Sequence record: NC_101842.1
Origin: a phage
DNA length: 64,000 bases
Strand: one strand, 5' to 3'
Part shown: piece by piece, positions 957 to 49,350 of the stretch
Layout: each line of letters opens with the position of its first letter
Position numbering within the stretch: position 1 is the first letter of the stretch
Translations under genes and position numbers: made by a program
The notes under the pieces: model-generated
Seen by the model: the letters and a program-made list of their open reading frames with translations, nothing else
What the model was told of the DNA's origin: nothing
Databases searched by the model: none

Positions 957-1018
957 TAAGATAATGACACGGGCCAAAAGGCCCACTAAACAAAAACCAC
1001 ATAAAGAGGAAAAACATC

Positions 1019-1282
1019 ATGAAACGTCTTGACCAGCTCAAACTAGTTCAATATATGGCTTATCGTGTTCTGGAAGTCCAGAAAGGTAGCAAAAAAGAGG
1101 TTTGCGAGAAAGCTTATAAGATCTTTACCCGCAAAAAAGATGACTGGATGCTACGCCAGACCAAAAAGGCTGACATCTTGGGGTACCTGGAAGAAGAGAT
1201 CCGACTTGAAGAACAAGAAGAGATCCGCCGTAGTGAGGCAGATTATCAGGCAGCTTGGGAAAACTGGATGAGCAACAAATAA
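1019..1282 (+). CDS. hypothetical small protein (87 aa), charged
   Basis: ORF track; RBS-like aagagg upstream; terminator directly downstream. Confidence 0.45.
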   Translation: MKRLDQLKLVQYMAYRVLEVQKGSKKEVCEKAYKIFTRKKDDWMLRQTKKADILGYLEEEIRLEEQEEIRRSEADYQAAWENWMSNK

Positions 1283-1301
1283 TACAACAAGATGAACGGT
1301 C

Positions 1302-1327
1302 AGGGGCTTAAAGCCCCTTTCTTTTTG
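1302..1327 (+). terminator. rho-independent terminator (aggggc-ttaa-gcccct + T-run)
   Basis: 6-bp GC stem, tetraloop, T-rich tail immediately after stop of ORF 1019-1282. Confidence 0.65.
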
Positions 1328-1934
1328 TCTTCTCTTTTCCTACCATAAACGGCCCTACCTGGCAAGTGGAATAATTGACGAGCCATCAATCCCACACACT
1401 GTACAAATATACATGGAAAATAACTATTGCATAATTTTTCATTGTGTGGTAGCAAGGCCATTTTTACCCGTTTTACCTTCCAAAATTGCACGTAATGCCG
1501 CTATTGCACAAATTTTAACCTGATGCACATCTCCAATATCTTGTCAACAACTAAAAATCTTTATAAGTCATGCACTTACATAACCACAAAAGCGTGTTCT
1601 ACGTGAAAAATCGAGTATAACTATAGCCGCCAGATCTCAGAATTTACGTACGCTCACCAGTCTATAGCCTGCTAAGTATTTATTCCAACCATAGAATAAC
1701 GGAATAGTCAATACCTGCATAAAATAATTATTCGTGTAAACTGCATAACATAAATCGGCTAGGATGTCAACATTTTTCGTAAACAGCTCGAAATTATAAC
1801 GGTGAGTTATAATAAACAGAGAAATCTTTAGTCGTCTAATGTTTACTGTACATTACTATACTGACTGGAATCATTAGATGACTAAGAGAAAGATAAGAAA
1901 TCATTAACAATGCAATTGTTTTATTCGTAACAAT

Positions 1935-2112
1935 AAGGCAACTATGCAAACGAATGGCATGGCGCGACGGAGTCGCGACATAATATAAAAGCAGTAACCA
2001 TCACCCCCGTGATAGTTTGTCTGCAAACTATTAATCAGATCATAGTTGCCTTGTATTTAGTTAATCATGACATAACAAGCAAGGCAACTATAGATCTGCT
2101 AATAGTTGCCCT
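1935..2112. repeat. two inverted-repeat pairs of AAGGCAACTAT / ATAGTTGCC
   Basis: AAGGCAACTAT at 1935-1945 and 2071-2081; inverse ATAGTTGCC(T/C)T at 2042-2052 and 2102-2112. Confidence 0.7.
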
Positions 2113-2194
2113 GCTTTTATATTATGTCATGCTAATTATAATCAGTGCGATTATTGTCATGTATAATTATTGTCATGCAAACGAATGGCATGGC
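1944..2194. repeat. 20-bp perfect direct repeat ATGCAAACGAATGGCATGGC (two copies)
   Basis: copies at 1944-1963 and 2175-2194; second preceded by tandem ATTATTGTCATG x2. Confidence 0.7.
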
Positions 2195-2204
2195 TGATTA
2201 TCGG

Positions 2205-2296
2205 TGTGTAAACAGTCAATCATGTAAATGGTTAGCATGTGAACAATCAGGAATGTAAACAATCCAGTGTGTAAACTAATAGGTGTGTAAAAGTGT
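2205..2296. repeat. six iteron-like direct repeats of consensus RTGTAAAC
   Basis: gtgtaaac, atgtaaat, atgtgaac, atgtaaac, gtgtaaac, gtgtaaaa spaced about 15 bp. Confidence 0.6.
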
Positions 2297-2854
2297 CATG
2301 TTGTGTCAGTTAGGTCACATTATGTCAGACAAGTTTTTCCCCTCTTTGTCAAGTGCTGCATGAAAAATTTACAAGCTTGTATGGTAGCATTTTTGCGGCC
2401 CTGTTTACATTCAGGAGTGTATGTATAATCCTTGGTGTGTGGGCGTTTAGACGTCTAGACGGTTGGAAGTATGCAGGTCAATATCTAATCTATTGGCTGC
2501 TAACTATATCCCACACAAATGATAAGAAATATAATTGTTATATGCGTAAACTGTAACTCATGTTATCAATCCCTGTATGTATCGCCAGTGGTGCGCATAA
2601 TGGGTATTATGTTAAATTGCCCGTAATGATAACTATTCTCACAATGATAGGTATTCTCATTCACCCCCACAAGATAGGTTGCAAATGTTGTGCCACTGTG
2701 TGAACGGCCTAGCCTATTAATTTGCCTCACTGCCTTGATATTTGAGAATTGTTATAAGAATGAGAAGTATTCCCATTTCGTCCGCCTGGCAGCACTCCTG
2801 TAGGTCAGGTCAAAATCGTGGTAGAATTGGGCCTGTTCAGATATTTCTGGCTGA

Positions 2855-4064
2855 CTCTTCAGGTCTGTGTGGGAAAAGCCAACCTCTCCGGCGGGGCATG
2901 GGGTCATGACGGGAAAATTGCAGGTCAATTAAAAAATTTACGTGGTGTATGAAGCGCTCTTCAGGTAAGGCATGTATTATGGGATGAAACCCTCTTCAGG
3001 CAATGATATTTGTGGGTGTGATATTTGCTGGAAAGCCAGATATGACGGGACTCCCGGCGGGGCAGGGGTAGTACAGACAGGGAAAATATGGAGGATGTGG
3101 TTGGGTAAATTGATCAGGCAGGTAGAGTATGGAATATGTTACAGGTATGTTAAATAGGGAGGCTGAATATCTGTAGGATTTGTGTGTAAAATCAAAGACT
3201 TAAGTGGTGTTGTGGTATTTTCTATAAATAATTCAAGTTTAATAGGTAATATTTGTCTCTATTCGCTTTGTGTGGTAAACAGATTCAGATGAGATTGGTT
3301 TACAAGTGTATACATAATATACAAATTAAAGATACAAGAAACCCCCCTCCCCCTTCGGCTACCATTCACCTTTTCCTCTGACTGGTACTTAAACACTTAT
3401 TCAGACTCTTCAGGTTATCACCCATATATCATATGGCAGTGACTGGTGTCCTCCGGCCCCTCTTTCGTCACCCGTCCGCTTCGCCATGCTAATGCCATAG
3501 CCAATGGTTCGGTTGTTCACCCTGCTCACTCAGGTGTATCTCCATACCCCTTCAAACCGAAGAGAACAGAAAACCCGAATTACTCGGTAAAAGAAAAGAG
3601 AAGAACTTAATTTTATCAGGATAGGCAAGAATGTCAAGGCATGACTGCTCACTAAACAAGCAAACAGTCATGTGTGGGAGGTAAGTGATTGTGGTGGTGG
3701 GAAATTTAGTTGAAAGATGTGCTACAGGTGCGCTTCCAGCACTTTAGCAGGGCAGCTAATTGTGTGTCAGTCCAGCGGTTCATCCTCTACTTCACTGAAA
3801 TCAATGTTCATGGTCTCTTCCCAACCATCGATCTCAGCACAAGAGTGGAGTTCTTTAGGACTTACTCCCAAAGCATCAGCAACAGAGTCCATATTTAACA
3901 CCTCTGGCAGGTATGATTCATCGAATTCAAGGTAAATCAGGCCACGAGTGTTGTCAGCTCCACCAAATATTTCTATCTTCATGAAATCTCCTCTGGAAAT
4001 GAGAGTGTGAACAGGGTTTTATACGTTCCGATGCACAGGAATTATGCACGTTTGCCTCTTCAGG
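2855..4064. repeat. dispersed 9-mer CTCTTCAGG (5 copies) plus duplicated CCGGCGGGGCA(T)GGGG block
   Basis: CTCTTCAGG at 2855, 2957, 2992, 3406, 4056; ccggcggggcatgggg at about 2886 and ccggcggggcagggg at about 3052. Confidence 0.65.
3767..3982 (-). CDS. hypothetical small acidic protein (71 aa)
   Basis: ORF track; N-terminus MKIEIFGG resembles other MK(I/V)E(I/L) small proteins in the array. Confidence 0.4.
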   Translation of the reverse strand: MKIEIFGGADNTRGLIYLEFDESYLPEVLNMDSVADALGVSPKELHSCAEIDGWEETMNIDFSEVEDEPLD

Positions 4065-4103
4065 TCATGCTTTAGCATGAGGAACCTGTGTGGGCTCGGT
4101 GCT

Positions 4104-4316
4104 TCATAGTCTACCACCCCTGAACTCTTCGTGCTCAGGCATAATAGAGAACCAGATATCTACGATGTCCTCCCACGTCAGGTCATCAGCCTCAGGATCT
4201 GTCTGGGACGAAGATGAAGAGTCCTCAGAATATAAGTTTTCCTCTTTAACTGGCTCATCCAAGGGACATATGGTCACTCCTTCGGATGTCTCTTCAGATA
4301 CATGTGTGTTGATCAT
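4104..4316 (-). CDS. hypothetical small acidic protein (70 aa)
   Basis: ORF track; very acidic, Ser-rich. Confidence 0.35.
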   Translation of the reverse strand: MINTHVSEETSEGVTICPLDEPVKEENLYSEDSSSSSQTDPEADDLTWEDIVDIWFSIMPEHEEFRGGRL

Positions 4317-4402
4317 GTTCCACCCGTGAGTATTCCGGCAACAGCCGCTATGGAAGTAATGATCATCAGGATCACCACTAAAACTTCAGACAATGTTCTC
4401 AT
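4313..4402 (-). CDS. putative 29-aa single-pass hydrophobic peptide (MRTLSEVLVVILMIITSIAAVAGILTGGT)
   Basis: hand-translated; ATGA start/stop overlap with ORF 4104-4316; promoter-like TTGACA-17-TAGTAT upstream on minus strand. Confidence 0.3.
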   Translation of the reverse strand: MRTLSEVLVVILMIITSIAAVAGILTGGT

Positions 4403-4618
4403 TGTGTATTCCATATTCTCCAAACTGTGTGGATACTATCACGGTAGCGGTAATGTGTCAACAGAAACGCCGCGAGGGTTTGGTTAAAATCCGAGCGTAT
4501 GGTGATTTGGGTCAAAACGGACGTGCGTTCTCGCTACGCTCGAAAGAGAGATTTGTTTGTAGGAAGCTCTTAAACGCTCTGTAATGAGATTATCTGTCCA
4601 AGGTATGCAATCGTGCAC

Positions 4619-4650
4619 CAGATAAAGAAAAGGACGCCACAGAGCGTCCT
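4619..4650 (-). terminator. rho-independent terminator-like hairpin (minus strand)
   Basis: 7-bp stem aggacgc/gcgtcct; T-rich tract follows on minus strand; after ORF 4675-4986. Confidence 0.45.
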
Positions 4651-4674
4651 AGGTGTCTTAAATTTGATATTTTG

Positions 4675-4986
4675 CTATACCCATGAGGGCTTATCAAGGT
4701 TGGAGTAGCTGAAAGGTGTCAAAAGGTGACTGTCAAAATCTCTCAAACTATCTAAATCTTTTTCCTCGTCCTGACACCATCTGTGCCTACATTTATTGTT
4801 GTAGTGCATAGAATGCATAGCGTTCTGCAATTTAACAGGCACAAGTGATTCAGGAGTAGATAGTATTGTTGGGTATGCCAGAACCACCTCAAACAGTGGA
4901 AACACATCGAAACTAAAGTCTACCTCTGCAGAGGTTGATGGCATGTAAGAGTATTTAGCCGCCTTTGTAGACATAATCCACCTCAC
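4675..4986 (-). CDS. hypothetical protein (103 aa)
   Basis: ORF track; 4-nt overlap with upstream ORF. Confidence 0.4.
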   Translation of the reverse strand: MRWIMSTKAAKYSYMPSTSAEVDFSFDVFPLFEVVLAYPTILSTPESLVPVKLQNAMHSMHYNNKCRHRWCQDEEKDLDSLRDFDSHLLTPFSYSNLDKPSWV

Positions 4987-5309
4987 ACAGGTTTGATAAT
5001 ACCTTTACCGAATAACTCTTCGTATCTAATCTTATCCGGATCCCACTCCTGGATAATTTCGAAGACAATATCCAACCCTGGGATAATCACTTCTCCAGTG
5101 TCGAGCTTAGCAAGAACAAAACCGGAAGGTTGAATGGTTTCCCAGTTGCGCCGATTGGAATAGAAGACCTCGAAAATATCGCCGACCTTTATCTGTTGAT
5201 CAAGATGTTCAAGATTCTCTTTCATATAGACGCAGCGGATTTTTCGTGCAGGCCATAGACCACCTGCATCACGTTCATTTAGCTCTTTTACAGTAATCGG
5301 TATACCCAT
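4983..5309 (-). CDS. hypothetical protein (108 aa)
   Basis: ORF track. Confidence 0.45.
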   Translation of the reverse strand: MGIPITVKELNERDAGGLWPARKIRCVYMKENLEHLDQQIKVGDIFEVFYSNRRNWETIQPSGFVLAKLDTGEVIIPGLDIVFEIIQEWDPDKIRYEELFGKGIIKPV

Positions 5310-20008: not shown

Positions 20009-22132
20009 TCAGCAACCACAACTTCCGTAGTGCTTAACTCGCTCGATAACTTCCGCTTGCTTACCTTTATTGTAAGGACGAGAGTTAGGACTGGAAAGGT
20101 ATCCAGACACACGTCGAATTACGCTGATCGTTCCCTCTTCATGGTTTCCACACTCTGGGCATACAAAGCCTTTAGCTGTTGCACTGAACTCACCAGAGAA
20201 ACCACACTTGAGACATTTATCCACAGGCTGGTTGATACCAAAATACATAATGTGTTTATATCCGAAATCAACAAGAGCTTCCAAAGCATCTAAGTTGTTT
20301 TTCAGATTTGGTGTCTCTACGTATCCGATGTTGCCACCAGAGGAGATCATAGCAAAACCTTCCTCATACTCCCACTTATCAAAAGGAGAGCTATTGATCC
20401 ATACTGGCTGATGGAAACTGTTGGTGAGATATTCATGCTCGTGCTTCAACACTTCAGGATATTCACGATCCAGACAGGTTGCAGCTTTATAGCATAGACT
20501 CTCAGAAGGGGTGCCGTACAAGCTAAACGCTAGTCTACTTTCCTTCTTGTATCTCTCACAAGCATCTCTCATGTGCTGAAGTATTCCAAGAGCTAAAGCC
20601 TTGTCACCCTCCCTGCCCAAAATCTGACAGGTTTCATACACACCAATATACCCAATACTGATGGAAGCGTACCCGTCGTAGAAGAGTTTATCAATACTCT
20701 CTTCAGGGTCCAGGCGAGCAAGAGCGCCTTCACACCACATGATAGGGTTCTGCCCTGCCTTTGTCCCTTTTAGACGATTAACCCTTACAAGGTGAGCCTC
20801 GTATGCAAGATCCAGGTATTCGTCAAGAACTGCAAAGAAATCAACACCTTCCGTTTTAGCTTTTGCCGCAATCATTGGCAGATTAAGGCTAACAACGCCT
20901 AAGTTAAATCTGCCAAGGTATTTCTCCTCGCCTGTTTCCAAGTCATTGTATTTGCTAAGAAAACTCCGGCAACCCATGCTCGTTACTTTACCATCTGTCG
21001 AGCCTGTCACTTTACGATTTAGTGGAACAGAAACAAAGTCAGGATAAATCCGCTCTGCAGAGCATTCCAGAGCTAATCGTTTCAAATCATAGTTAGGATC
21101 TCCAGGGTTCATGTTGACACCCTCTTCTAGGAAGAACAACACTTTAGGGAACACAGGTGTGATACGTTCTTCACCAAGACCCATTTTGTGGACTTTCAAG
21201 TAGTTTTTGGTAATCATTCTACCAAAGACTGAGGTGTCCAGACCTAAACTTAATGTGATGAATGGGGTTTGCCCGTTGACAGAAGTTAACGTATTGATTT
21301 GATAGAGTAAAGTCTGCATGCTGTCAAATACGTCTTTATCTGTCATCTGCATTGCAACAGTCTCAGCATCTGGCAACCAATGTTCCTGGCAAAATTTAAG
21401 GTTCTTCTCATAAGTCGCCTCAGCATACTGTGCCAGATAATGATCAATATGGCTCATAGTCTGACCCCCATATTGAGCACTAGCTACCGCACTAGAGATT
21501 TGGCTAAGGATTGTTGTTGCAACCCCTATTGACTTCGGCTTACTGACATGGGCGTTACCAATGTTGAATCCGTTTTCCAACATATCTGGATAATTTACCA
21601 AACAACAGTTTGTTAACGGACTGATCAAGTAGTCAAGATCATGCACATGGATGAAGCCTTTATTGTGCTCTTCTGAGACACGGTCTGGCAGGATCTGTGT
21701 TGATGCAAGGTGTTTGCTAAGGATGCCTGCAAGCAGGTCACGATGAGTGTGTACATGATTGGTAGGCTTATTTGCGTTTTCTTTTGTAAATTCATCACAA
21801 GTTCGATCCAAGAAGCCACTAATATCTGCAAGCAGTTTTCCACCTGCCTCTCTGTTATTATCTCTTGTCTGTCTATACTGGATGTATTCTCTGGCTGCAC
21901 ATTTTAAACCCATATCCATAAGAGCATCTTCAACAAGGATATGGATATTTTTTACAGAGATCGTGCACTGGTCGGTTGGTAGATTGTTAGCAACAACTTC
22001 ATTAACCGCACAAGCGATCCGGTAAGCTTCTTCTTCAGTATGTCCAGACTCAAGTAAGGCGGACTCTGCCGCCTTGATCACCTTAATTCCGTTATAGAAC
22101 TCTTCTCTACCGTCCCGTTTTACAACTTTCAC
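20009..22132 (-). CDS. nrdD: anaerobic ribonucleoside-triphosphate reductase (class III)
   Basis: N-terminal ATP-cone (MKVVKRDG), C-terminal glycyl-radical motif RRVSGY and Cys zinc ribbon; 707 aa. Confidence 0.85.
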   Translation of the reverse strand: MKVVKRDGREEFYNGIKVIKAAESALLESGHTEEEAYRIACAVNEVVANNLPTDQCTISVKNIHILVEDALMDMGLKCAAREYIQYRQTRDNNREAGGKLLADISGFLDRTCDEFTKENANKPTNHVHTHRDLLAGILSKHLASTQILPDRVSEEHNKGFIHVHDLDYLISPLTNCCLVNYPDMLENGFNIGNAHVSKPKSIGVATTILSQISSAVASAQYGGQTMSHIDHYLAQYAEATYEKNLKFCQEHWLPDAETVAMQMTDKDVFDSMQTLLYQINTLTSVNGQTPFITLSLGLDTSVFGRMITKNYLKVHKMGLGEERITPVFPKVLFFLEEGVNMNPGDPNYDLKRLALECSAERIYPDFVSVPLNRKVTGSTDGKVTSMGCRSFLSKYNDLETGEEKYLGRFNLGVVSLNLPMIAAKAKTEGVDFFAVLDEYLDLAYEAHLVRVNRLKGTKAGQNPIMWCEGALARLDPEESIDKLFYDGYASISIGYIGVYETCQILGREGDKALALGILQHMRDACERYKKESRLAFSLYGTPSESLCYKAATCLDREYPEVLKHEHEYLTNSFHQPVWINSSPFDKWEYEEGFAMISSGGNIGYVETPNLKNNLDALEALVDFGYKHIMYFGINQPVDKCLKCGFSGEFSATAKGFVCPECGNHEEGTISVIRRVSGYLSSPNSRPYNKGKQAEVIERVKHYGSCGC

Positions 22133-46355: not shown

Positions 46356-46452
46356 GCTAGGTAAGCCCTTTGGCAAGGGCGAGGATTTTTAATCCTGAAA
46401 ATAGACGAGGTAGTCGTTGAATACATAGGTGGTTCGATTCCATCACCTAGCA
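46356..46452 (+). tRNA. atypical tRNA-like element (97 nt)
   Basis: perfect 7-bp acceptor gctaggt/acctagc, canonical T-arm, D-arm-like hairpin, but irregular anticodon arm and about 29-nt variable region; no CCA. Confidence 0.4.
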
Positions 46453-46459
46453 CCTTTTT

Positions 46460-47519: not shown

Positions 47520-47803
47520 GAGTTGCTACACTGTTTATTGTGTGCTTGTTATTATGTGGGTGTGCAACCAGCGTTGAGAGAGAATACAAGATTGACCCTC
47601 CGGATGTAGGAAGGTTGATTGTTAAACCCCCGGAAGGTGCCATGAAACCACCTGCTAAAGCTATGCCTTTGAAGAAAGGTGCGCCAGATGCAGTGAATTC
47701 TGGCATTATGAGGGATAATAATCTGTCTTGTAGCAATGATAGAGCTAAATTGATCATTTTGCAAGACTATATTAGAACACTGTTTCCAAAGGAGAGAGGT
47801 TAA
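47516..47803 (+). CDS. o-spanin-like outer-membrane lipoprotein (Pro-rich)
   Basis: signal with LLLCGC lipobox-like site, Pro-rich mature region. Confidence 0.55.
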   Translation: MRVATLFIVCLLLCGCATSVEREYKIDPPDVGRLIVKPPEGAMKPPAKAMPLKKGAPDAVNSGIMRDNNLSCSNDRAKLIILQDYIRTLFPKERG

Positions 47804-49350
47804 TGTCTAAGATTTACGGACCGTGTTCTGAAAAGCAGAAGATGATCCTAGAAAACGATGCAGATATTTTGGTAATCGGCGGTGCCGCAGGGTCTGGCAA
47901 GTCGTTCCTCTTGCAGTTGATGCCACTTAAAATTATTGATGACCCCCACAGCTCTGTGGTTATGTTCCGAAGAACAACCCCACAGTTGGAAGGTGAGGGT
48001 GGACTATGGCCTAAAGCAGTAGCTATTTATAGTGATCTGCCTGAAAACATTAAGCCAAAGTTCAGAGAGAAGGATCATAAGTTCATTTTTCCACGGTTTG
48101 ATCCGAACACTGGTAAGTGGGATAGAAGCAAAAAGGGAGCTGTTGTAAAATACTGCCATATGGAGTATGTACAAGATAAGCTTAACCATCAGGGGCTTGA
48201 GTACACCATGGTTTGCTTCGATGAGGGCACGCAGTTCGAATGGGAGCAGATAGACTATCTGATGTCTCGTCTGCGATCTCAGTCAAAGTATCCATCAAGA
48301 ATGGTTATCAGCTGTAACCCCGATTCAGAACACATGCTTGCCAAACTGGTTAGATGGTGGTTGGACGATGAAGGGTATCCAGATCCGGAGAAATGCGGTA
48401 AGAAAAGATATTTTATCCGACGCGACGGTGAATTTATCTGGGGAGACTCTAAAGAAGAGTTGATAGAGAAATACACCACGGTTAACGGACTTGGCGTAGA
48501 GATCAAGCCAAGACCGTTGTCATTCTCGTTCATAGGCGCAACAATATTCGATAATCCTGTCTGTTTGAGAGACAACCCAGAATACCTTGCTTTCCTCGAA
48601 GGTCTACCAGAGCTGGAAAAAGCTCAGCTTCTCCATGGTAACTGGTTTGCAAAGCCTGAGGGTGCAAACTATTTTCAAAGATCTTTCCTTCGTGATGCCG
48701 ATAGAGTACCTCTTGGGTCAGTATCTTGCAGGGCATGGGATAAGGCAGGAACCGAGAGAACTTCCGGTAATAAATTTCCTGACTTTACTGCCAGTATTAA
48801 GGTAAGTAAAGATAGCGACGGCTTTTATTACCTGTCCGGTGATTATTGTCCTGAGAACGTGGATGACGGGAGGTATTCCACAGGTCTGGAAGGCAAGTTC
48901 TGTAAAAAGGCTGGTGAACGAGATGTGATCATCAGGAAACAGGCGCAGTTCGATGGTGATGATTGCATAATCGTCTTCTCTGTGGACCCAGGGCAGGCAG
49001 GTAAGAGTGAGTTCTTAACCTCCTCCAGATCCTTGCTTGCCGAAGGGTTCAGGGTTGAAGAAGACCCAATGCCTTCCAACAAGTCTAAACTGACAAGGTT
49101 CTCACCTTTTGCCAATCTTGCCCAACAAGGAATGGTGAGGATTGTAAAATCCAGTTTCCATCCTGATACTCTGGAAGCATTTCTGACTGAACTTGAAAAA
49201 TTCAACGGGGAAAGATCAACATTTAACAGAAAAGACGACTGGGCCGACTGTGTAGCTTCTGCGATTAATTTCCTAGAGAAAGAGGAGGTAGCACTTCCTT
49301 GTGTGATTCCATCAATCTCATCACCTTCTATGTTCAAGCGTTTTATCTAA
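47803..49350 (+). CDS. terminase large subunit
   Basis: Walker A GGAAGSGKS near N-terminus, 515 aa, directly upstream of portal. Confidence 0.8.
   Translation: MSKIYGPCSEKQKMILENDADILVIGGAAGSGKSFLLQLMPLKIIDDPHSSVVMFRRTTPQLEGEGGLWPKAVAIYSDLPENIKPKFREKDHKFIFPRFDPNTGKWDRSKKGAVVKYCHMEYVQDKLNHQGLEYTMVCFDEGTQFEWEQIDYLMSRLRSQSKYPSRMVISCNPDSEHMLAKLVRWWLDDEGYPDPEKCGKKRYFIRRDGEFIWGDSKEELIEKYTTVNGLGVEIKPRPLSFSFIGATIFDNPVCLRDNPEYLAFLEGLPELEKAQLLHGNWFAKPEGANYFQRSFLRDADRVPLGSVSCRAWDKAGTERTSGNKFPDFTASIKVSKDSDGFYYLSGDYCPENVDDGRYSTGLEGKFCKKAGERDVIIRKQAQFDGDDCIIVFSVDPGQAGKSEFLTSSRSLLAEGFRVEEDPMPSNKSKLTRFSPFANLAQQGMVRIVKSSFHPDTLEAFLTELEKFNGERSTFNRKDDWADCVASAINFLEKEEVALPCVIPSISSPSMFKRFI

Follow-up and report, generated by a model that had tools for sequence, protein, structure and literature searches.

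A genus-conserved array of a nine-base word on one side of the terminal repeat of Vequintavirus genomes, a possible recognition array

The phage and its terminal non-coding box

Judged by nucleotide identity, the window (the whole 64,000-nucleotide stretch of DNA analysed here) is from a Vequintavirus, that is, an rV5-like Escherichia coli myophage: its region 2400–4600 matches 121 phage records at 90–98% identity, every one of them belonging to this genus. About 19 GenBank records named 'Campylobacter phage' (MG0656xx) are 89–97% identical to the same region, and are probably mislabelled or contaminant assemblies. Genes on the + strand stop at 1282 and are followed by a terminator at 1302–1318, those on the − strand stop at 3767, and between the two sets lie ~2.4 kb without a credible ORF (Table 1). 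The rV5 counterpart of this box is found between genes 163 and 164 (locus L014), and the only published remark on it is that it holds no ORFs (PMC3606486). The region that is the subject of this report has 41% G+C, like the remaining window, and so is not the A+T-rich sequence it was first taken for; GC skew merely tracks the direction of transcription in the window (compare PMC3606486).

The small proteins encoded near the array are without a Pfam domain, no initiator gene is recognisable there, and a tRNA scan of the array region returned no tRNA. The 87-aa product of 1019–1282, called 'DNA translocase FtsK' in the naswa and B9-1 records, has neither an FtsK domain nor any other Pfam domain, and its label appears spurious. 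Our literature search found no transcriptome or terminus study for the region, and no description of the motif, of the position of the terminal repeat within the non-coding box or of the near-invariant block reported below.

The physical genome ends lie inside this box. Terminal redundancies of 458 bp were reported for the vequintaviruses HdK5 and EdH4 by Korf et al. (PMC6563267), and terminal repeats of 459 bp for Gotham by Dias et al. (PMC7471380). In the HdK5 record the first 459 nt are the same as the last 459 nt and map to 2328–2786 of the window with 96.5% identity, and the last base of the EdH4 record falls at the same position. From this mapping, virion DNA would begin at 2328 in the orientation of the window, which places the first copy of the motif (2855) 69 bp to the right of the inner boundary of the direct terminal repeat (DTR). 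Between 12 and 32% of the columns per 50 nt are variable within the repeat (14 aligned genomes). Immediately to its right, at ~2795, there is an indel hot spot of up to ~50 bp, because of which the distance from the repeat to copy 1 shifts by up to ~50 bp among phages.

Table 1 Features of the terminal region (positions in the window; DTR, direct terminal repeat)
Feature	Position	Strand	Remarks
Terminal non-coding box	1320–3766		Between convergent transcription units; grey 'non-coding' box of the rV5 map
Equivalent of the 459-bp DTR	2328–2786		From HdK5/EdH4 mapping; physical genome ends, concatemer junction
Motif copy 1	2855–2863	+	CTCTTCAGG; 69 bp right of inner DTR boundary; tenth base T or C
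G+C-rich block 1	2884–2925	+	Core CCGGCGGGGCATGGGG at 2888–2903; long form lineage-specific
35-bp tandem pair ATGAAnCnCTCTTCAGGyAA...	2949–3018	+	Carries copies 2 and 3; 85% identity
Motif copy 2	2957–2965	+	Copy kept least often
Motif copy 3	2992–3000	+	CTCTTCAGGC; overlaps weak − strand sigma-70-like site
Copy 3 promoter-like site, TTGCCT-16-CATAAT	3003–2976	−	Weak, 9/12 matches
G+C-rich block 2	3051–3095	+	Core CCGGCGGGGCAGGGG at 3054–3068; conserved copy
Near-invariant block	3340–3690	−	~340 bp, contains copy 4; candidate ncRNA or cis element
G-run CCCCCCTCCCCC	3342–3353	−	Left edge of near-invariant block; then A+T-rich stretch
Motif copy 4	3406–3414	+	Within near-invariant block
Orphan strong sigma-70 promoter, TTGACA-16-TGaTAAAAT	3610–3637	−	11/12 consensus positions plus TG; no ORF after it
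Motif copy 5	4056–4064	+	Intergenic spacer between two − strand CDSs of leftward operon
Copy 5 promoter-like site, ATGACC-16-CATAAT	4068–4041	−	Weak, 9/12 matches
Degenerate sixth copy CTCTTCAGA	4290–4298	+	Inside CDS 4104–4316 (− strand)

A nine-base word clustered to the right of the terminal repeat

The preliminary description had pointed to five copies of CTCTTCAGG between 2855 and 4064, four of them extended to CTCTTCAGGT, and this holds: exact copies start at 2855, 2957, 2992, 3406 and 4056, all on the + strand, with only copy 3 reading CTCTTCAGGC instead. Including two more exact copies (20699 and 28199), the window contains seven, compared to 0.60 ± 0.67 (maximum 3) expected from 100 dinucleotide-preserving shuffles. 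The complete genome of HdK5 (139,328 bp, 97.6% identical) has eight copies on both strands, five of which are in the cluster; for five of eight random sites to fall within 1.21 kb has p ~1.5 × 10^-6, and the frequency in the genome does not match the local density, the outcome that the preliminary description had named as refuting its observation. No other 9-mer of the terminal region is as locally enriched as CTCTTCAGG. The copies at 20699 and 28199, as well as most one-mismatch copies, are antisense to coding DNA, and the strand bias of the one-mismatch matches marks CCTGAAGAG as a favoured sense-strand word in this phage's coding DNA.

The copies are irregularly spaced (102, 35, 414, 650 and 234 bp, with the degenerate sixth copy included), and lie at 69–215 bp (copies 1–3) and at 620, 1270 and ~1500 bp (copies 4, 5 and 6) from the boundary of the repeat. 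The flanks of the sixth copy match those of copy 1 at 17 of 23 bases, and Murica has an exact CTCTTCAGG at this site. The 1.2 kb spanned by the five copies had been described as non-coding, which does not hold throughout: a 71-aa CDS on the − strand (3767–3982) separates copies 4 and 5, the latter standing in a spacer of the leftward operon. To the left of the repeat, the non-coding DNA at 1320–2327 has no CTCTTCAGG even with one mismatch allowed. An IMG/VR scan for pairs of the 9-mer 15–45 bp apart gave >120 unrelated matches and was judged uninformative.

The array is conserved throughout the genus

The comparison covered 16 Vequintavirus genomes with 89–99% identity in this region, 14 of them in a full alignment and two, L141 and EdH4, by inspection of the copies. 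All 16 carry 3–5 copies at orthologous positions and in the same orientation, so that in the window, as in the 15 other genomes, every clustered copy is on the + strand. Copies 1 and 5 are invariant (16/16), copy 3 is kept in 15 genomes (B9-1 has CTCTTCAGA), copy 4 also in 15 (L141 has CTTTTCAGG), and copy 2 in 13, having been changed by one substitution each in FV3 (CTCTTCGGG), L140 (ATCTTCAGG) and L141 (CTCTTCAGA). Different phages have lost different single copies, a scatter that would be expected of redundant sites.

Variable columns make up 3 of the 36 motif columns, compared to 36% of the surrounding non-coding columns outside the near-invariant block (binomial p = 2 × 10^-4; p = 0.019 in a block permutation using random sets of four 9-mers). 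The conservation signal is modest (p ~0.02) because only one genus, at ≥89% identity, could be compared. The proposal that the word is a recognition site, made in the preliminary description among others, is consistent with the retention of position and strand in 16/16 genomes and with the lower variability of the motif columns, and it is the reading that we favour below.

Which part of the repeated sequence is conserved can also be told from the relatives. Copies 2 and 3 stand 35 bp apart wherever both survive, and the other spacings drift through indels, copies 1 and 2 being 82 to 102 bp apart in different phages. The tenth base of copy 5 is T in the window only and C elsewhere, and neither the tenth-base T nor the long form of the first G+C-rich block is conserved in the relatives, which indicates that the conserved unit is the 9-mer rather than the 10-mer or the first block. 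These two elements, on which the preliminary description laid stress, are thus the non-conserved parts.

A distant blastn search of 2787–3766 against 50,697 phage records retrieved Vequintavirus only, at ≥89% identity, and synteny via a nearby DsbA-like gene is not kept in the other genera examined (Seu621, GAP31 and CR3). The Seu621 record begins at rIIA and not at a terminus.

Duplication accounts for part of the array

The G+C-rich block reported as duplicated is indeed so, and its similarity extends beyond the two cores to a gapped ~45 nt (2884–2925 and 3051–3095), with a local score of 36 (shuffles: mean 15, maximum 25). The long form of block 1 is found in the window, in HdK5 and partly in FV3 only, and most relatives have a shorter CCGGCGGCGGGGA...GGGG form at this position. 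Local duplication has left other traces as well: within the 35-bp tandem unit, 17 of the 20 bases around the word match between copies 2 and 3, and one of the related G+C-rich blocks follows copy 1, the other copy 3. Copies 4 and 5, by comparison, have only the 9-mer plus one or two flanking bases in common with the others. A degenerate tandem duplication, as was suggested at the outset, would therefore partly explain copies 1–3, but not copies 4 and 5; given the unrelated flanks of the latter and the maintenance of the copies across the genus, duplication alone does not account for the array.

A near-invariant block with an orphan promoter at its right edge

Copy 4 is embedded in a block that is more conserved than the genes next to it, with 0–12% variable columns per 50 nt compared to 4–32% in adjacent CDS (14 aligned genomes). 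Its right edge is a strong leftward promoter that is nearly invariant in 13 genomes, differing by one spacer base in rV5 and by one base of the TGn element in B9-1, and that has the form of the rV5 early promoters in Table S4 (for example, P074). The list of rV5 promoters has none within the non-coding box, because the search behind it was limited to gene-upstream DNA. No conserved ORF follows the promoter, as the few substitutions present break short ORFs or add a stop. The left edge of the block, 3342–3353, reads C6TC5 on the + strand and G5AG6 in the sense of a leftward RNA, a run which we take to resemble closely the human mitochondrial CSB II. In the mitochondrial element, G-runs stop transcription and stabilise primer R-loops (PMC3488243).

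Two further observations concern the DNA between the block and copy 3. LL12, MiataMamis, A135 and C7 have unrelated sequence in place of the A+T-rich stretch at 3258–3336. At 3190–3202, AATCAAAGACTTA fits the IHF consensus WATCAANNNNTTR within a conserved sub-block, and varies in B9-1 only (one base, at an N position).

A scan of 1000–5000 on both strands against Rfam 15 gave no match at E ≤ 1, and the RNA of the block folds no better than shuffled sequences on either strand. E. coli genomes have no similarity to the block or the region, and host mimicry is therefore unsupported. Scans of IMG/VR and metagenomes with words from the block retrieved four contigs, all of them Vequintavirus, which makes a deeper comparison impossible. 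We consider the block a candidate for a new phage ncRNA or for a core cis element. It may matter more than the array itself, whether as an ncRNA gene, an R-loop origin or a core packaging signal.

A possible recognition array at the concatemer junction

The array is real, conserved across the genus, confined to one strand and placed on one side of the DTR. It is of a known kind, namely the short-word arrays that lie beside phage terminal repeats. A direct parallel is found in T7, where an array of the heptamer CCTAAAG ('SRL') on the same strand lies beside the 160-bp terminal repeat in DNA without genes: the T7 repeat extends to 160 and its array begins at 175, 15 bp inside, and in the window the corresponding positions are 2786 and 2855. 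A leftward host promoter lies within the T7 array, which is another point of likeness. The differences are in density and extent. In T7 a 7-mer occurs ~12 times within ~165 bp, with most copies separated by 13 bp and with further copies in the terminal repeat, whereas the vequintaviruses have 5–6 copies of a 9-mer, irregularly spread over 1.4 kb, with none inside the repeat. The dense and near-regular spacing of the T7 type (about 10 copies or more, at about a helical turn) is thus not seen here. T7 also has a related array at its other genome end, whereas the DNA across the Vequintavirus repeat has TGTAAAC and TGTGTCA families instead of a related array. To our knowledge, the function of the T7 array is also unproven.

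Lambda cosB (R3-I1-R2-R1) and the P1 pac hexamers are recognition arrays of the terminase small subunit and, like the T7 array, are thought to mark the side of the junction or to start packaging. As in the window, several copies of a short word stand by the cut site in cosB and pac, on the side that defines polarity, and are redundant. The cosB and pac arrays are compact (~120–160 bp), their repeats are separated by an IHF bend site, and their binding is proven; of the CTCTTCAGG array, only copies 1–3 fall within ~215 bp of the repeat boundary, and the IHF-like match at 3190–3202 lies outside them.

One-sidedness, restriction to a single strand, redundancy and position at the junction, with T7 as comparison, favour a recognition array. 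We infer, from the sequence and by analogy, protein binding at the word and a part in packaging or end processing, and we put the probability that the array is a cis-acting protein-binding array at the concatemer junction, serving packaging or end processing, at roughly 0.4. The copies would be redundant sites for a sequence-specific phage protein acting at the genome end, the likeliest candidate being the recognition subunit of terminase or an accessory factor. Such a factor might distinguish the two sides of the junction and build up the complex by which packaging is started or the terminal repeat is duplicated. Consistent with this, the 5–6 copies spread over ~1.4 kb are on one side of the DTR only, in the box where convergent transcription units end and concatemers are cut. 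Several findings weigh against this reading. Known terminase recognition sites are compact and lie within ~200 bp, whereas copies 4–6 would be far (620–1500 bp) for such a site; the spacing is irregular, and copy 1 varies in its distance from the DTR. Moreover, promoter-like sites of the opposite strand extend over copies 3 and 5, and copy 4 is part of a putative transcript; a role in transcription or in RNA would thus fit copies 3, 4 and 5 equally well.

Alternative readings

The overlap with promoter-like sites suggests that the word, CCTGAAGAG on the − strand, could be the binding site of a regulator that switches leftward terminal transcripts, located immediately past the −35 position in weak sigma-70 promoters directed toward the terminal repeat. 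At copies 3 and 5 a −35-like hexamer overlaps the word and CATAAT follows 9–10 nt downstream on the − strand; in relatives the −10-like hexamer has mostly usable forms (TATAAT, AATAAT and CATAGT, all xATAxT), the exception being CCTAAT at copy 3 of C7, whereas the −35-like bases drift. T7, too, has a leftward E. coli promoter (A0) within its repeat array. However, −35 and −10 elements at a spacing of 16–18 bp are found at copies 3 and 5 only, copies 1, 2 and 4 lack an acceptable −10 at the corresponding distance, and the bases that are conserved belong to the spacer, normally not a conserved part of a promoter. Furthermore, the rV5 promoter survey lists none here, and nothing obvious is encoded downstream of copies 1–3. 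We regard a promoter or operator role as unlikely, if one to be taken seriously. A role for the copies in RNA rather than DNA, as a motif (A/G)CCUGAAGAG repeated in a long leftward ncRNA and acting as a processing or protein site or as a decoy, seems to us quite improbable. The operon would read through into the motifs, with only a weak hairpin (3587–3575) and no terminator-like site on the − strand from 3767 onward, and the copies are all on one strand; in phiTE, of the same subfamily, a repetitive ncRNA serves as a defence decoy (PMC3475682). Yet transcription of the region is putative, no Rfam family or significant structure was detected, the copies have no structural context in common, and E. 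coli offers no sequence to mimic.

The features of the near-invariant block would also be compatible with a part of a replication origin, in which RNA from the orphan promoter ends at the G-run and primes via an R-loop, the 9-mers being sites for an initiator or helicase loader. The resemblance to R-loop origins (ColE1 RNA II, T4 oriF/oriG, mitochondrial CSB II) consists in the strong promoter without an ORF, in the G5AG6 run followed by A+T-rich DNA (PMC3488243), and in the conservation of the 340 bp downstream of the promoter above that of adjacent coding DNA; copy 4 is inside this block and copies 1–3 are downstream of it. On the other hand, a 9-bp word with long, irregular spacing is unlike iterons, which are ~17–22 bp long, keep helical phase and go with an initiator gene; no such gene is recognisable nearby, the A+T-rich stretch is replaced in several relatives, GC skew follows the direction of transcription only, and the fold of the RNA is not above shuffles (z = −1.25). 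An origin is accordingly rather unlikely in our estimation. The word may, finally, have no function of its own, its copies being leftovers of duplication plus chance matches in a slowly evolving region. The 35-bp unit holding copies 2 and 3 and the related blocks that copies 1 and 3 precede point this way, as do the loss of single copies without obvious consequence and the preference for CCTGAAGAG in this phage's coding DNA, and with all relatives ≥89% identical, conservation is weak evidence. Against it stand the identical 9-mer of copies 4 and 5 despite their unrelated flanks, the clustering (p ~10^-6), the motif columns that vary less than their surroundings and the strictly one-sided, single-stranded layout, and we think it unlikely that the array is a mere relic.

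A number of other known signals were compared with the copies by eye and set aside: a + strand promoter, a MotA-box-like element, a small ORF, and CsrA, DnaA, Chi and KOPS sites each fit at most one or two copies. The same applies to a ribosome-binding site (AAGAGG plus GTG at copy 5); the ORF in question is broken by indels in relatives. A site-specific nicking motif, the third suggestion of the preliminary description, would show as single-strand interruptions at the word in packaged DNA, as in virion DNA of the T5 or phiKMV type, and draws no support from any of the present results.

Beyond the recognition array that we favour, a broader and quite speculative possibility, which we consider a long shot, is that the array, the orphan promoter and the 340-bp block form a single undescribed terminal control module of Vequintavirus. 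A non-coding transcript ending at the CSB-II-like G-run would then prime or open the DNA next to the terminal repeat. The machinery for replication or packaging would be brought in by the CTCTTCAGG sites, acting either as DNA or within that RNA, and the start of replication would be coupled to end formation at one locus.

Significance

Phages of the rV5 type are widely used, and have been proposed, for therapy and for the biocontrol of E. coli O157. The placing of the repeat and the word array provide targets for finding the packaging signal, for correcting the start of records and for building vectors or transducing particles, and would also help to locate the origin. The motif adds a second example to the unexplained repeat arrays beside short terminal repeats, of which that of T7 has stood for decades.

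Other repeats and neighbouring features

The terminal repeat and the DNA to its left have repeat families of their own. AATGAnAnnTATTCyCA occurs three times within the terminal repeat (2625–2659 and 2759–2775), two of the copies being in tandem with an 18-bp period and annotated as repeat_region in naswa and Alma. To the left of 2328 the sequence differs greatly between phages and has short TGTGTCA and TGTAAAC repeats. Other repeat families are dense in the non-coding DNA at 1928–2291, where ATAGTTGCC occurs as direct and inverted copies, and this part of the genome also holds a perfect 18-nt inverted repeat (1977–1994 and 2111–2128) and a perfect 20-nt direct repeat, ATGCAAACGAATGGCATGGC, at 1944 and 2175. 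There are four 22-mers of the TGTAAAC type, three at 2207–2275 and one at 2545 within the terminal repeat. A perfect 12-nt inverted repeat (1328–1339 and 3593–3604) carries TCTTCTCTTTTC in the sense direction just past the terminator of the rightward operon and where the putative leftward ncRNA would begin; the repeat is of low complexity and may be due to chance.

Elsewhere in the window, at 46356–46454, ARAGORN calls a tRNA-like gene of 99 nt, whose anticodon (atcc) has four bases, within the tRNA cluster, and its counterpart is annotated as tRNA-OTHER in HdK5. The large terminase gene (47803–49350) is intact in the window; in rV5 the protein matches in three pieces, with an HNH homing endonuclease annotated among the features there. 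The large terminase is 33–38% identical to the terminases of Felix O1-like and PAK_P1-like phages and of ICP1.
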